Of a DNA stretch of 22,507 bases, positions 2,596 to 16,480 are shown piece by piece. This stretch comes from Candidatus Hadarchaeales archaeon (lineage in GTDB: Archaea; Hadarchaeota; Hadarchaeia; Hadarchaeales; WYZ-LMO6). Position 1 is the stretch's first letter. Each line of letters starts with the position of its first letter. The stretch lies in NCBI GenBank assembly GCA_038851755.1, contig JAWCKR010000021.1:1-22507 (forward strand), given 5' to 3'. The translations under genes were made by a program, and so were the position numbers. The notes beneath the pieces were generated by a model. That model had not been told where the DNA came from. It saw only the letters and a program-made list of their open reading frames with translations, and ran no database searches.

Positions 2596-4031
2596 GCAGC
2601 AAGATCGTTCCGAAGAAGTACCCGATGCCCGAACAGGACCCGAAGGAGAGGATAAAGAACTTCAGGGAGGTCCCGCTGGGACAGGACCCTGAGACGGTGA
2701 AGCTGGAGGCAGCCAGGTGCCTGCAGTGCAAACCACCGAAGGGCAGGACCTCAGCGCCGTGCGTGGAGGGATGCCCCGTGGGGATAGACATCCCGGGCTT
2801 TCTCGCCCTGGCCAGGGAGGGGAGGTTCGAGGAGGCCATCGCTCTCATCAAGGAGAAGAACGCCCTCCCAGCCATCTGTGGTAGGGTGTGCCCCTACGAG
2901 AACCAGTGCGAGGGGGCGTGCACCCTCGGTAAGAAGTACGAGCCCGTCGGGATAGGGAGGGTGGAGCGCTTCCTGGCGGACTGGGAGAGGGCCAGGGGCT
3001 TCAAGGTGCCCGTGCGTCCCCCGCCCACGGGGAAGAAGGTGGCCGTGGTGGGCTCGGGTCCGGCCGGGCTGACGGCGGCGGCGGAGCTCGCCAGAAGGGG
3101 ACACGCCGTCACCATCTTCGAGGCCCTTCATGCTCCGGGAGGGGTGCTGGTGTACGGGATCCCCGAGTTCAGGCTCCCGAAGGAGATAGTTTTCGCGGAG
3201 GTGGAATACGTGAAGAGCCTTGGGGTGGAGTTGAAGCTGGATGTGGTGGTGGGGAAGACCGTTACGCTGGAGGAGTTGAGGCAGGAGTACGACGCGGTGT
3301 TCATAGGCACTGGCGCGGGCCTCCCCAACTTCATGAGGATTCCCGGGGAGAACCTGAACGGGATCTACTCGGCCAATGAGTTCCTCACCCGCTCCAACCT
3401 GATGAAGGCCTATCTCTTCCCCGAGTACGACACTCCCACCAAGGTGGGGAGGAGGGTGGCCACCATAGGGGCGGGGAACGTGTCCATGGACTGCGCCAGG
3501 ACCGCCCTAAGGCTGGGGGCGGAGGAGTCCTACATCATCTACCGCAGGTCCAGGGCGGAGATGCCGGCCAGGAAGGAGGAGATCCAGAGGGCGGAGGAGG
3601 AGGGCGTGAAGTTCCTGCTCCTCACCCTCCCCAAGAGGTACATCGGGGACGAGAAGGGATGGGTGAAGGAGGTGGAGTGCGTGAGGATGCAGCTGGGGGA
3701 GCCGGACGAGTCGGGGAGGAGGAGGCCGGTGGAAATCCCCGGTTCGGAGTTCAGGCTCCAGGTGGACACGGTCGTGGTGGCCATAGGGCAGAGCCCCAAC
3801 CCCCTGGTGCCCGCCACCACCCCCGGGCTGAAGACCAGCAAGTGGGGGACCATCCTGGCGGACGAGGAGGGGAGGACCTCCCTGGAGGGAGTGTGGGCGG
3901 GAGGCGACATCACCACGGGGGAGGCCACGGTAATCCTGGCCATGGGGGCGGGGAAGAAAGCGGCAGCCTCCATCCACGAGTACCTGAGCGGGAAACCCTG
4001 GCCTTCGGACTGGAAGCCCGTCAACGCCTGA
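2592..4031 (+). CDS. nfnB: NADH-dependent ferredoxin:NADP+ oxidoreductase large subunit (NfnB/SudA, GltD-like)
   Basis: EAARCLQC...[52 protein letters not shown]-coupled to nfnA. Confidence 0.93.
4005..4031 (+). repeat. Direct repeat copy 1 (last 27 nt of nfnB)
   Basis: TCGGACTGGAAGCCCGTCAACGCCTGA; 25/27 identical to 4722-4748. Confidence 0.9.
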
Positions 4032-4074
4032 AGCGTCGCTCGGGTACCCCGACGCTGGCGGTGCTCTCCCACCG
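4032..4074. other. Two adjacent stem-loops just after the nfnB stop (possible terminator or element end)
   Basis: AGCGTCG(4032-38)...GGGTACCC...CGACGCT(4050-56); CGGTG-CTCTCC-CACCG(4059-74). Confidence 0.45.
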
Positions 4075-4076
4075 AG

Positions 4077-4096
4077 GAAAGTATAAATGGTATACT
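4077..4096 (+). promoter_or_regulatory. BRE/TATA promoter of TA operon with overlapping palindromic operator
   Basis: GAAAAGTATAAAT about 25 nt before ATG 4111; AGTATA-AATGG-TATACT palindrome 4080-4096. Confidence 0.65.
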
Positions 4097-4110
4097 GAGA
4101 ATACCTGCTG

Positions 4111-4329
4111 ATGTCCGCCACCACGATAAAGGTGAGTTTGAAGACGAAGGAAACCCTGCGTTCCCTCGGCGAGAAGGGGATGTCGTATGACGAGATCATC
4201 CAGGAGGTCGTGGCGGGGTATCTGGCCCACGTTGAAGAGCTGCTCGAGAGGCTGAAGGAGTTCCCGAAGGGCAGGTCGCTCAAGGAGATAGTCGATGAGC
4301 TTGAGGGTCGTTCTCCACCCAGCCGCTGA
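4111..4329 (+). CDS. Antitoxin, ribbon-helix-helix type
   Basis: MSATTIKVSLKTKETLRSLG..GMSYDEII is the archaeal TTI.V...T...L..L....SYD..I RHH pattern; 72 aa, directly upstream of and overlapping a RelE-like gene. Confidence 0.75.
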   Translation: MSATTIKVSLKTKETLRSLGEKGMSYDEIIQEVVAGYLAHVEELLERLKEFPKGRSLKEIVDELEGRSPPSR

Positions 4330-4618
4330 GCGCGAGTTGAAGAAAATCCATAAGGAAAGGGAGAGCTTCCGGAGAATCGTTAAGGCAATCAGCGACTACG
4401 CCGAAACCGGAAGGGGAGACGTTAGGGTGGTGGCATCGGCGAAGAGGCAGGAAGAAACCCTGCTGGCCCTGAGGGTTGGTGAATGGAGAATCCACTTCGG
4501 TGTCATCGGTGACACGATGTACGTGGTGGGGATGGAAAGACGACCGAAGGCTTATCAACCCTGGGTCCTTGAGGTGGCGAGGCGCAGACTGAGGGAGCTT
4601 GGTGTCGAGCTGGGGTGA
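4295..4618 (+). CDS. RelE/ParE-family type II toxin
   Basis: VVLHPAAERELKKI...GRGDV...LRVGEWRIHF...RR..AY; 107 aa. Confidence 0.8.
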   Translation: MSLRVVLHPAAERELKKIHKERESFRRIVKAISDYAETGRGDVRVVASAKRQEETLLALRVGEWRIHFGVIGDTMYVVGMERRPKAYQPWVLEVARRRLRELGVELG

Positions 4619-4721
4619 GGCAGACCCTCGAGCCCCCCAGGTGCCTGAGAAAACACCAGCGGGAGTCAGTCACTCGTGGCTTGAACGAGGGCCGATGGGT
4701 GGACCCAACCTCCCAAGATAC

Positions 4722-14526: not shown

Positions 14527-14664
14527 GACCCTGGGCTCACAGGTCGGTTCGGGGGGAAGGAGTTCCTGGAGGGGTCCGTCGCACAGGAGGACAATCCCAC
14601 ACGTGCTTCAAGATACACCGGAAGCACTAGGCAAGCTGATTTCTAAGCTGGGGATATATCCTGG

Positions 14665-15921
14665 CTACTCCGTTTCTGACCGGAGGAGTTCCCTCTCGAG
14701 GGCATAGACAGGTACCACTTTGACCCTTCCGAAATCCTCTTCCCGCCCCCATGAGACGAGCAACCCCCTTCTTGCCCCCAGCCTTTCCACCCTTTCCGAG
14801 AACTCCTTCGCCTCCCTTTCCCCCGCGCTTTCCTTCACCTCCACGGGCAGCACTTCCCCGTTCGTCAGGATCACGTCTATCTCTTCCTTCCTCTCCCGGT
14901 AGTAGTACTTGGGCCTGAGAACCGAGACCACATAGGTTTCAAGAACCGCGCCAATCTTGGTTTCGAAATCCCTCCTTGAGCAGGCGAAGATCATGGAGGG
15001 TGTGGCTGGGTAGTACCGCTTGAGCTTCCTTGAACCCGAAAGGGAGGAGGTTCTGAAGTTCGAGAGGGATCTAACCAGCAGGGAGAGCTCGAGGAAGCGG
15101 AGGTAGTGGGAGATGGTGACCCTGCTCCTTCCAAGGTCTCTCGAGAGATTGTTCACGTTGATGGTCAGTCCGGGGGAGGAGAGGACGAGCCTGAGCAGTT
15201 GCTCGGCCAAGACGGCGTCTCTCCCTCCCGAGAGGAGGGGAAGGTCGCGGAACACTACCCTGTCCACCACCGAGCTCCTCACGTACTCGGCAATCCTGTT
15301 CTCGTCCTCCCAGCCCGCCAGCTCTGGAAAGCCGGACTTCCTCAGGTAATCCTGAAAATAGGCCTCCACCCTCCTCTGCTCGGTCGTCTGCAGCCCCCTG
15401 AGTTCAAGAAACTCCGAGAAGAGAAGGGGCCCGAGCTCGACGGTGAAGAACCTCCCCGCCAGCTTTTCCATCGCCTCCTTCGAAAGCGGCAGGGCGGAGG
15501 AGCCGGAGAGGATGAACTTCAGGTTTGGGTAAAGATCGTAGAAGCGCTTGACGGTCGAGGCCCAGCCCGGCGCGTACTGCACCTCGTCCAGGAAGATGTA
15601 AACCCTTCCCGCCTCCTCGAAGGGTTTCGCGAGGATCCTCTTCTCGTAAAATCCCAGAACCTCAGCAGGGTCCCTGAACTCTTCGTCGAAGGAGAAGTAC
15701 AGGATGTTGGAAGGCGGGACCTTCTCCAGCAGCCCCTCTATCGTCTGGTAGAGAAGCGTGCTCTTCCCAACCCTCCTGGGTCCGACCAGGAGGAGGGCCT
15801 GCCTTTCCCGCAGGGTCCCTGCCAGCCTTTTGAACGCATACCTTTTGAAGGGCGGGGCCAGTTCTTTCCTAACCTTTCCCGTGAACCACCACTCGTTGAA
15901 CCTCTCTAAGGTTTCTTTCAC
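14665..15921 (-). CDS. AAA_14 ATPase with DUF4143, HTH and C-terminal PD-(D/E)xK nuclease-like domain
   Basis: N-terminal NEWW, Walker A GPRRVGKS, Walker B IFLDEVQ, SGSS, GFPE, KLKRYY, EIDVI...PVEVK. Confidence 0.9.
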   Translation of the reverse strand: MKETLERFNEWWFTGKVRKELAPPFKRYAFKRLAGTLRERQALLLVGPRRVGKSTLLYQTIEGLLEKVPPSNILYFSFDEEFRDPAEVLGFYEKRILAKPFEEAGRVYIFLDEVQYAPGWASTVKRFYDLYPNLKFILSGSSALPLSKEAMEKLAGRFFTVELGPLLFSEFLELRGLQTTEQRRVEAYFQDYLRKSGFPELAGWEDENRIAEYVRSSVVDRVVFRDLPLLSGGRDAVLAEQLLRLVLSSPGLTINVNNLSRDLGRSRVTISHYLRFLELSLLVRSLSNFRTSSLSGSRKLKRYYPATPSMIFACSRRDFETKIGAVLETYVVSVLRPKYYYRERKEEIDVILTNGEVLPVEVKESAGEREAKEFSERVERLGARRGLLVSWGREEDFGRVKVVPVYALERELLRSETE

Positions 15922-15951
15922 ATTGGTATAGTAGAATTAACCAATATTTAA
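15922..15951 (-). promoter_or_regulatory. Promoter of AAA_14 gene with inverted repeat between TATA and start
   Basis: Minus-strand TTAAATA at 15951-15945; ATTGGT(15922-27)...ACCAAT(15940-45). Confidence 0.5.
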
Positions 15952-16038
15952 CTTTTAGGTTAAGTGAAGAAGAAATAGTGGGAGTCGTGAGAGGCGAAGG
16001 GGCAGGATGAATTTTCTAAAGGGGAGGGCAGAGTAACA

Positions 16039-16069
16039 TGGTGGTGCACGTGGAGCCCTCCAACGAGAA
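16039..16069 (+). repeat. Direct repeat copy 2 of CDF 3' end
   Basis: Identical 31-mer; continues in the CDF frame as VVHVEPSNEKRGGRKG* with stop at 16089-16091. Confidence 0.95.
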
Positions 16070-16087
16070 GCGCGGGGGGAGAAAGGG

Positions 16088-16480
16088 ATGAGGTTCAGCG
16101 GGAAGGAAAGGGAGTTCCTCGAAAGGAACGAGGTCTGCAGGCTCGCCACCGCCGGGAGGGACGGCCTTCCCCACGTGGTGCCCGTCTGCTACCTCTTCCG
16201 CGGCGGAACCTTCTATGTGGCCACCGACTACGGGACGAGGAAGTACAGGAACGTGAGGGAGAACCCCAGGGCGGCGCTGGTGGTGGACACCTACAGGCCT
16301 CACCGGGCCGTGGTCGTGTGGGGCAGGGTGGAGGTGCTGGAGAGGGGGGAGGAGTTCAGGAGGATCAGGGAGGAGTTCTACCGGAGGTTCGACTGGGCGA
16401 GGAAGGATCCGTGGGAGGAGGGGGAGGCACCCATCCTGAAGCTCGTTCCGGAGAGGAAGGTGAGCTGGGGTCTGGGCTAG
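16088..16480 (+). CDS. Pyridoxamine 5'-phosphate oxidase-like (PPOX/F420-binding split barrel) protein
   Basis: CRLAT...G.PHVVPV, TRKYRNVRENPRAALVVD, VVVWGRVE, SWGL. Confidence 0.88.
   Translation: MRFSGKEREFLERNEVCRLATAGRDGLPHVVPVCYLFRGGTFYVATDYGTRKYRNVRENPRAALVVDTYRPHRAVVVWGRVEVLERGEEFRRIREEFYRRFDWARKDPWEEGEAPILKLVPERKVSWGLG

Follow-up and report, generated by a model that had tools for sequence, protein, structure and literature searches.

Small recombinase-less cassettes behind repeated gene 3' ends in a Hadarchaeales contig, possibly placed by arm-guided recombination

How do cassettes of one or two genes come to stand between two copies of a host gene's 3' end when no recombinase travels with them? 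This question is raised by contig JAWCKR010000021.1 of a Candidatus Hadarchaeales archaeon, whose 22,507 nucleotides are termed the window here, i.e., the whole stretch of DNA that was analysed. The window is the entire 22.5-kb contig C21 of genome G000 (1.25 Mb, 26 contigs, GC content ~63%, 93% complete), and the sequencing runs containing its sequence are labelled hot-spring metagenomes. Two cassettes, one behind an nfnB-like oxidoreductase gene and the other behind a CDF cation-efflux gene, are each bracketed by direct repeats of the gene end. Both are recent foreign insertions without a recombinase of their own, and we put the chances at about even that they were integrated by arm-guided host recombination or repair.

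The gene map of the window was drawn from open reading frames (ORFs) and Pfam matches, 32 window ORFs being scanned. The genomes used for comparison were four congeners (G001-G004) and G005, which belongs to a sister genus in the same family. The cassette behind nfnB is made up as follows.

2592..4031, plus strand: nfnB-like or glutamate-synthase-small-subunit-like oxidoreductase, target gene 1 (Pfam Fer4_20 5.9e-38, Pyr_redox_2 4.3e-41; conserved in G001-G005)
4005..4031, plus strand: gene-proximal repeat copy 1, the final 8 codons and TGA of nfnB (25/27 direct match to 4722-4748)
4032..4721, plus strand: inserted cassette 1, 690 bp, GC 0.58, absent from 5 relatives
4111..4329, plus strand: putative antitoxin, 72 aa (Pfam DUF7557 4.2e-08; weak VAPB_antitox 0.034), overlapping the next ORF
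4295..4618, plus strand: putative toxin of RelE/ParE-like type, 107 aa (its ParE_toxin match is weak and, at E 0.027, below cut-off)
4722..4748, plus strand: distal repeat copy 1, then the native downstream flank; the following sequence GGACCATCTTTTTAAATCC is the sequence after the nfnB stop in all relatives
4783..5178, plus strand: PRC-barrel gene, native downstream neighbour (Pfam PRC 1.1e-08; ATG at 4783 in frame with the listed ORF)

The cassette behind the CDF gene is larger.

13663..14526, plus strand: CDF cation-efflux gene, target gene 2, now with a tail KPRRRR* that looks imported by comparison with relatives (Pfam Cation_efflux 4e-31, ZT_dimer 2.6e-22)
14477..14574, plus strand: gene-proximal repeat copy 2, 31 identical bp followed by a CDF tail that has diverged, its stop and some 13 codons of a PNPOx start
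14508..16038, no strand assigned: inserted segment 2, 1531 bp, GC 0.57, absent from 4 same-genus relatives
14665..15921, minus strand: AAA_14 + DUF4143 ATPase-nuclease-like gene, 418 aa, candidate defence gene (Pfam AAA_14 2.9e-35, DUF4143 1.2e-17)
16039..16125, plus strand: distal repeat copy 2, the native CDF 3' end in its displaced position, continuous with the native PNPOx start; its tail GCGCGGGGGGAGAAAGGGATGAGG matches the G003 empty site
16088..16480, plus strand: PNPOx-like gene, native downstream neighbour (Pfam PNPOx_N 1.8e-22), which directly follows or overlaps the CDF gene in relatives

Within the 3' end of the CDF gene, positions 14477-14507 match 16039-16069 in direct orientation at 31/31. 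This 31-mer is the longest exact direct repeat of the window, the second longest measuring 16 bp, and it contains the stretch AACGAGAA that is missing from the nearest relative. The similarity extends to 46 bp at 89% by blastn and, in a gapped local alignment, to ~14574 versus ~16125 (~98 bp). As a null, the best ungapped repeat score was taken for 400 random junction pairs drawn from G000 at similar spacing; the 99th percentile was 13 and the maximum 14, compared with observed scores of 31 (CDF) and 21 (nfnB).

Both sites are empty in the relatives. At nfnB this holds for 4/4 same-genus genomes and for G005, in all of which the nfnB stop directly precedes the sequence that in the window comes after the distal copy; collinear blastn blocks overlap by 28 bp at the G002 site. 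At CDF, again in 4/4 same-genus genomes, the CDF gene runs directly into the PNPOx gene. Both repeat copies of the window align to one stretch at these empty sites. Overlapping collinear alignments were obtained for G002 (-28 bp) and for G003 (23 bp), the two copies corresponding to a single copy there. The two mismatches between the nfnB copies were compared with the relatives: the proximal copy agrees with G003 and G005 at both, and with G004 and G002 at one each. The CDF protein now ends in KPRRRR*, resembling the tails in G004 and G001, while the native KRGGRKG*, which matches G003, is kept in the distal copy.

The two small ORFs behind nfnB overlap by 35 nt and are best described as a putative toxin-antitoxin (TA)-like pair, the toxin assignment being drawn from size, overlap and the weak ParE_toxin match; PADLOC gave no match to the 107-aa ORF. 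In the CDF cassette, an N-terminal AAA_14 and a C-terminal DUF4143 domain cover the full length of the protein, which matches the PADLOC family PDC-S01 (1.3e-58 over residues 26-405). Its defence function is a database prediction, and we treat the gene as a candidate. DUF4143 is placed in the PD-(D/E)XK superfamily, among families of unknown function, in the available part of one listing (PMC3424549). A literature search on DUF4143, judged from the listing of results and from passages, yielded no paper on mobility.

Logan contigs, which are built with k = 31, of four runs rather than raw reads were used to check the junctions. In run X1 a single contig (3500-5860) bridges both junctions of the nfnB cassette, as do two contigs in run X5, which belongs to another study. 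At the CDF site the ends of the X1 contigs coincide exactly with the 31-bp repeat, as a k = 31 graph would leave them: one contig runs over 14478-16037 and the next begins at 16040. An X5 contig (13721-14679) leads from the CDF gene through the proximal repeat into the cassette and bridges the left junction. The right CDF junction is not among the Logan pieces listed, and 3/4 window-cassette junctions are thus bridged by independent contigs. Contig depth is equal for cassette and flank (3202 versus 3209 in X5; 9.66 versus 10.3 and 10.6 in X1; equal also in X4), and the strains in X4 and X5 carry the same small cassettes.

In order to place the two loci in their genome, all of G002 (4 contigs) was aligned to G000, 89% of which aligned. 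Counting those of 300 bp or more between collinear neighbours, G000 has 40 insertions and G002 has 18; direct repeats at E < 1e-3 flank 8 and 2 of them, respectively. Four of the eight repeat-flanked insertions of G000 are cassettes of the kind described here, all at gene 3' ends and with TA or candidate-defence cargo. Two of the four lie outside the window.

C16:12735-12762 versus 13863-13891: cassette repeat, 16/16 exact, 29 bp with one gap, the final 9 codons and stop of a transaldolase gene
C16 cargo: nucleotidyltransferase (MntA-like, PADLOC PDC-S09) and a 121-aa ORF (MNT pair)
C15:25605-25797 versus 28290-28480: cassette repeat, 194 bp, 82%, the final 63 codons and stop of a 139-aa gene
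C15 cargo: second AAA_14-DUF4143 gene and a DUF234 fragment

The C15 site, too, is present as an empty site in all four same-genus relatives. The remaining repeat-flanked insertions were set aside, namely internal repeats of a repeat protein (C3:89437), the ends of two neighbouring tRNA genes (C2:79073/79623), a weak match of 74% (C3:57947), a 172-bp repeat around paralogous secreted-protein genes (C22:6343/11140), and tandem paralogs in G002 (C1:5441/6765 and C3:12490/15681). The last pair (12490-12824 / 15681-16015) brackets two other genes; the paralogs, of 499 and 521 aa, are 50% identical and share their last 335 nt at 99% identity, reflecting either gene conversion or an event of the same 3'-end-guided kind whose cargo was a xenologous gene.

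In all four cassettes the parts follow one another in the same order: gene body, proximal copy including the stop, cargo, distal copy, native flank. They measure 0.7-2.5 kb, hold 1-2 genes, and have a GC content of 0.47-0.59 versus ~0.63 for the genome; as in the repeat-bracketed homologues described below, the cassette amounts to the gene plus 13-420 bp on each side. The repeats all differ in length: 27 bp (nfnB), 46-98 bp (CDF), 29 bp (C16) and 194 bp (C15). Neither the four cassettes nor the window contain an integrase, a remnant of one or a transposase by Pfam. Scores for terminal inverted repeats (TIRs) do not exceed the shuffled 95th percentile in any of the four (three below, C16 equal), and no terminal sequence is common to any two. 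A GTGGNGCAC-like string stands at the edge of two repeats and not of the other two, and was not relied on as a motif. Casposons and insertion sequences have TIRs, a transposase or casposase, and short target duplications of fixed length, some casposons lying at gene or tRNA 3' ends. Target duplication is the point of likeness; TIRs, a transposase or casposase, and short duplications of one fixed length are not found here.

The repeat-bracket signature is real and recurrent, yet it marks a minority route, because most one- to two-gene indels between G000 and G002 have no repeat. Wherever the AAA_14 query matches G000, the match falls inside or at an indel as judged against G002. Besides the window gene the matches are C23:549-1784, C15:26977-28104 and 3071-4198, C26:4414-4845 and C2:114572-115043; repeats flank only the C21 gene and the C15 gene at 26863-28179.

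Which of the two repeat copies is native can be judged best at C15. In its part upstream of the repeat the gene resembles G003 (31/34 versus 28/34 for G002). The proximal copy matches G002 at 88/106 positions versus 83/106 for G003, the nearest relative, and beyond the stop at 26/46 versus 17/46. The distal copy, conversely, matches G003 at 89/106 versus 71/106 for G002, and continues into a flank resembling G003, G001 and G004. The switch in the proximal copy falls within ~10 bp of the edge of the distal copy. Since the proximal copy is G002-like and the distal copy G003-like with a G003-like flank, we take the former to have been imported from a lineage like G002 and the latter to be the displaced native end. 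A partly comparable picture emerges at CDF, where the distal tail matches G003 and the proximal side has another CDF-like tail and, after it, a degenerate PNPOx start.

The differences between copies were also sorted by codon position. Counts at positions 1/2/3 are 9/6/15 for C15, and 6/6/14 and 7/6/16 for two metagenome loci with AAA_14 genes (L189 and L154), which gives a total of 22/18/45 over the three cases (45/85 at third positions; chi-square p = 0.0006). Such an excess would be expected if the copies had diverged as working genes in separate lineages, and not by decay after duplication. From these comparisons the repeats appear to behave as two alleles of one gene end, of which the one attached to the gene looks imported.

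Homologues of the 418-aa AAA_14 protein were examined beyond this genome. Their distribution is patchy; the best in the order, from another family, is 63% identical, and no close one is present in the same-genus genomes. In records of the GTDB the best relatives (52-64%) are titled Bathyarchaeia, Micrarchaeales, Thermoprotei and Nitrososphaeria. Tight direct-repeat brackets surround a single AAA_14 gene at 4/15 loci in the order (including the window and the repeated motif of locus L112), at 7/35 metagenome loci with 300 bp or more to either side (5 strong, two of them one element), and at 1/13 GTDB loci. Inverted repeats bracket the gene at 0/35 metagenome and 0/13 GTDB loci. The bracketing repeat is a gene 3' end with its stop at L189, a whole small gene at L154, intergenic DNA at L183, L186 and L116, and the 5' part of vapC at L104.

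L104 (G009 C14, 959-1076 / 2781-2897) holds the closest homologue of the window AAA_14 gene (63%) within a 119-bp, 89% repeat, which is the 5' part of an ORF resembling vapC (PIN) by eye only; brackets are therefore not always gene 3' ends. At L183 a second direct repeat (2696-2744 / 3575-3623; 49 bp, 96%) surrounds two small ORFs resembling a vapBC pair, again by eye only, and its position next to a repeat-bracketed AAA_14 gene suggests arrays of such cassettes. Finally, a motif of ~60-70 nt (GGGGGACTAA.GGGGAGCCCCCGT.AAAGGGAGG...GACCGA) occurs in two genera upstream of paralogous genes with signal-peptide-like starts (G000 C22:6343-6512 and 11140-11311; L112 of G034, 226-249 and 2925-2948). 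In G034 two copies of it bracket an islet of an AAA_14 gene and two small ORFs. The motif has no Rfam match and may be regulatory or an RNA motif.

A mechanism that would account for these features begins with a cassette that arrives joined to an arm, i.e., the same gene's 3' end as copied from its former, related host; in the CDF case the arm would also carry the start of the next gene. Arm and target would then recombine where the homology has its gene-internal (5'-ward) edge. As a result the host gene would end in the imported arm and its own 3' end would be shifted beyond the cargo, an outcome that resembles a target duplication. How the joining is carried out we infer from what is observed, namely insertions with empty sites and repeats, the absence of recombinases, TIRs and shared ends, and an imported copy. 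The cell's own recombination or repair machinery would most likely do it, either by one-ended homeologous invasion or copying followed by end joining, or by a single crossover with a circle freed by repeat-repeat recombination in the previous host. Host recombination or repair is favoured because targets, repeat lengths and contents differ, termini are not shared and no recombinase is aboard. The preservation of gene ends is probably a survival effect, in that only such events would leave genes intact in a tightly packed genome.

One-armed anchoring has a bacterial parallel. Homology-facilitated illegitimate recombination, or one-ended homologous repair, was reportedly described by de Vries and Wackernagel and by Prudhomme and colleagues, both in 2002. 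One homologous arm anchors foreign DNA, and the other end is joined without homology and without a dedicated recombinase. The known cases come from bacterial transformation and usually delete recipient DNA rather than duplicate it. Anchoring by one arm is thus alike, whereas recipient DNA is deleted there and duplicated here.

Several points weigh against arm-guided insertion by host enzymes. The polarity of the copies is well judged in one case (C15) and partly in CDF, with small identity counts, and the nfnB and transaldolase repeats fit plain duplication with subsequent drift equally well. In C15 the longest identical block (~30 bp) lies near the stop, yet the switch is found at the other edge, where identity amounts to ~8 bp; the position of the switch outside the longest identical block therefore makes a poor fit to simple Campbell-type homologous recombination. 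A donor search with the whole 1531-bp insert against 64 other genomes of the order gave a best match of 67% over the gene, in G009, and detected among these genomes neither near-identical insert DNA nor a copy adjoining a CDF gene. The Logan contigs listed for the four runs include no circle joint and no joint skipping either cassette, although contigs cannot show absence. The enrichment of brackets around AAA_14 genes over random repeat placement within loci is modest (6 observed versus 2.4 expected). Furthermore, G000 itself holds a tyrosine integrase on a mobile stretch (C22), and an imported proximal copy, a native distal copy and a crossover at the edge are the classical footprint of tyrosine integrases at gene 3' ends. 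Williams is said to have described this footprint, imported-proximal and native-distal, in 2002.

The strongest competing explanation treats the cassettes as satellites with att flanks on which a tyrosine integrase encoded at another place acts in trans, or as what little is left of elements whose integrase was lost; we regard this as possible, on balance rather improbable. It predicts the same polarity and the same crossover edge as does an imported arm, and it is in keeping with repeats that lie at gene 3' ends, with an imported proximal and a native distal copy, and with a crossover located at the repeat's gene-internal edge. An enzyme is at hand: G000 has one tyrosine recombinase (C22:2-1051, L001), at a contig edge, with PF00589 (2.7e-22) and a zinc ribbon, scoring 82 bits on the XerA model versus a cut-off of 220. 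Its homologue in G002 lies at a different locus, decayed, in a 5.8-kb insertion (C1:370240-376031) adjoining tRNA-Leu(GAG), and integrase-borne islands therefore exist in the genus. That insertion also holds a 1002-aa ORF, and no flanking repeat was found there.

Cis-mobilizable elements (CIMEs) provide a precedent. In the available passages of PMC5704250 they are defined by lost integration genes and retained attL and attR, and they share with our cassettes the direct repeats of the target 3' end, an element copy that restores the gene, a displaced native end and the absent integrase. They differ from the cassettes described here, which show no decayed larger element, varied targets and repeat lengths, unshared ends and a size of 0.7-2.5 kb. 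Four different targets with four repeat lengths (27-194 bp) and no common termini or motifs speak against integrase-mediated insertion, and neither an integrase nor a remnant is found in any cassette. The 93%-complete genome yielded a single tyrosine recombinase and no serine recombinase; one Cas1 (C2:117701-118573, ~3 kb from AAA_14 gene fragments) and one TnpB both lie on contigs other than the window. Relatives show clean empty sites and not larger islands, and the brackets found in other phyla include intergenic DNA, a whole small gene and the 5' part of vapC.

A true long target duplication, in which a staggered break of 16-200 bp is filled after joining, possibly following a cut by a cargo nuclease as proposed for restriction-modification (RM) systems, and the copies later drift apart, appears unlikely. 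The nearest known counterpart of our cassettes, whatever its mechanism, comes from bacteria; Nobusato and colleagues reportedly described in 2000 the insertion of RM genes with long target duplication. According to the available passages of Furuta, Abe & Kobayashi 2010 (PMC2853133), the insertion is a small unit with an empty site in a relative and direct repeats of >30 bp; such insertions turned up in several bacterial phyla, no archaeal RM system surviving the selection. The same passages argue that repeats spanning a start or stop codon keep the target gene intact and so allow survival, and propose double-strand breakage as a common property (PMC2853133). Our cassettes agree with these insertions in consisting of a selfish or defence unit with an empty site, direct repeats of variable length that align to a single-copy target and often extend over a stop or start codon, leaving the target gene whole, and no other mobility gene. 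They differ in cargo, which is a TA-like pair, an MNT pair and AAA_14-DUF4143 (PDC-S01) rather than RM genes, and in the archaeal host. Measured against the 30-bp repeat criterion, CDF (31 bp exact, 46-98 gapped) and C15 (194) lie above, nfnB (27) and C16 (29) below. A further difference is that one copy here is diverged and looks imported, whereas the available rows of their table show repeats closer to each other than to the empty site.

The identical 31/31 block, including the AACGAGAA stretch that the nearest relative lacks, is what a filled staggered break would leave; the 16/16 and 25/27 repeats fit an identical origin as well, and the AAA_14 cargo has a PD-(D/E)XK-type domain. The C15 copies, on the other hand, are only 82% alike although the insertion is younger than the split from G003, and one of them is G002-like. 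The excess of differences at third codon positions also disagrees with drift after duplication, as does the CDF homology, which runs on, diverged and gapped, for ~60 bp past the identical block. The TA and MNT cassettes, moreover, have no DNA nuclease.

Larger integrase-bearing islands eroded to one or two genes are a very unlikely source: the decayed integrase island at another tRNA-Leu gene of G002 speaks for such a history, whereas the sites of both window loci are empty in all relatives examined, the X4 and X5 strains carry the same small cassettes, and the cassettes are compact, with 13-420 bp beside the gene in 4/4 cases here and in the bracketed homologues. Least probable of all, to the point of being negligible, is an assembly artefact in which a 31-bp repeat, at which the X1 contigs break and whose graph alone would allow either an integrated copy or a circle plus an empty site, let the assembler thread a separate molecule into the chromosome, given that an X5 contig of another study crosses the CDF repeat into the cassette (13721-14679), cassette and flank depth are equal in X1, X4 and X5, the nfnB repeat is imperfect with both junctions bridged in X1 and X5, and the diverged CDF/PNPOx-like continuation of the proximal copy makes sense only as a recombination product.

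The sequence-only reading of this DNA had proposed recurrent mini-islands bounded by second copies of host gene 3' ends, three of them in the window, and parts of it stand. Both direct repeats, 25/27 at nfnB around the ORFs 4111-4329 and 4295-4618 and 31/31 at CDF around one AAA_14 + DUF4143 gene, are confirmed, and empty sites, found at both window loci in every relative examined, identify the enclosed segments as insertions. The proposed lack of recombinase, transposase and TIR likewise holds, by Pfam on the 32 window ORFs and by TIR scores. Recurrence is upheld in part: two of the three window cases remain and are joined by C16 and C15, whereas the third and a possible fourth are lost and just 4/40 insertions are of this kind. 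A cargo of defence or selfish type was found in the TA-like pair and the AAA_14-DUF4143 candidate, not in a beta-CASP gene, which is a host gene. As to the idea that this lineage may acquire cassettes of one or two genes by an in-trans or repair-based route that preserves gene 3' ends, such cassettes do lie behind intact genes, without recombinase and with junctions supported by independent contigs; the route is nevertheless not peculiar to the lineage, as other archaeal phyla have brackets too, it is a minority route, and long target duplication has already been described for bacteria. Where it can be judged, the repeats are not second copies of the host's own end, one copy looking imported instead.

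The third supposed island was centred on a tRNA gene.

10403..10490, plus strand: tRNA-Leu(CAG), not an att site here (ARAGORN, Rfam; 3' end without a repeat on either strand except a chance C-rich 15/16 direct match)
10796..13006: two conserved host genes by G002/G003 synteny, a 252-aa protein of unknown function (plus strand, 10796-11554) and an RNase J-like beta-CASP protein (minus strand, 11585-13006)

An inverted repeat of 15/16 had been claimed for the tRNA end. Searching every 14-24-mer of tRNA-Leu against both window strands gave no inverted match; the single match is direct, a C-rich 15/16 at 10906-10921 inside the conserved ORF 10796-11554, and due to chance. The beta-CASP protein matches the NCBIfam RNase J family (8.9e-23). 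The window is syntenic with G002 at 10767-11511 and 11601-14501, and with G003 from 11825 to the end of the G003 contig. As the genes at 10796-13006 align in synteny with G002, and the beta-CASP gene also with G003, they are host genes and not cargo, and the mini-island was rejected. Nor is the helicase remnant proposed for this region detectable: in 10481-10800, blastn-short and tblastx against the reverse-gyrase region of G002 gave nothing below E 0.004 except 14 bases of the tRNA end. The collapsed fourth case at 11524-11580 dissolves into a 9-bp repeat (GAGCACCAC), and the insertion that G002 has there is without a repeat.

This G002 insertion (C1:280775-282124 versus window 11511-11601) consists of one additional gene of 449 aa whose product is apparently secreted; it separates the two conserved genes and has no flanking repeat, a typical repeat-less indel. 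Between tRNA-Leu(CAG) and the homologue of 10796-11554, G002 furthermore has a 1158-aa reverse-gyrase-like gene (C1:282940-286416), so called from its N-terminal sequence and a match to a topoisomerase IA-like region. In its place the window has, at 10491-10795, a 273-bp spacer of 52% GC with no detectable remnant. A full-length relative of the protein is present in G001 only (44%); partial C-terminal matches of ~31% are seen in G000, G003 and G005, and none in G004 at E 1e-20.

From its 5' end the window reads ferredoxin-like genes, the nfnB-like gene (2592-4031), the two small overlapping ORFs, PRC-barrel and metallophosphoesterase genes; then a radical-SAM/GNAT gene, a Hel308-type helicase, thioredoxin reductase, tRNA-Leu(CAG) (10403-10490) and the 252-aa unknown; and, towards the 3' end, RNase J-like beta-CASP, DUF2179, the CDF transporter (13663-14526), AAA_14+DUF4143 on the minus strand (14665-15921), the PNPOx-like gene and more housekeeping genes. 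The tRNA is the sole match in an Rfam scan of the window and of C22. Three further stretches, 17187-17400, 17765-18017 and 20655-21226 (212, 251 and 570 bp), do not align to G002 and have no significant flanking repeat.

The phenomenon is an archaeal variant of a known, mechanistically unsolved insertion type, and the new clue is that the repeats resemble two alleles of a single gene end, the imported-looking one being attached to the gene. No account of TA or AAA_14 cargo in insertions showing long target duplication came up in the literature, which was partly covered; PMC2654758, in its available part, has the phrase only in its references. More tentatively, the observations may be generalized: archaeal defence and TA cassettes, chiefly single AAA_14-DUF4143 (PDC-S01) genes, might spread integrase-free between related and unrelated genomes, a homology arm from the last gene end guiding insertion at the same gene and re-creating its end, and the PD-(D/E)XK nuclease of the cargo possibly making the cut.

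The movement of defence and addiction genes without a transposase or integrase is an old loose end, long target duplication having been catalogued since 2000 without a mechanism. The window loci are clean archaeal examples with empty sites, and they widen the range of cargo to TA-like pairs and the widespread PDC-S01. The allele clue turns a vague duplication into a testable arm-guided insertion, carried out either by host recombination alone or by an integrase in trans, and this model would also account for gene ends as the surviving sites in very compact genomes. If the cargo nuclease makes the initiating break, the genes would be self-propagating as Kobayashi proposed for RM systems. If arm-guided insertion is true, short homology arms would suffice to move defence genes between species of hot-spring archaea.

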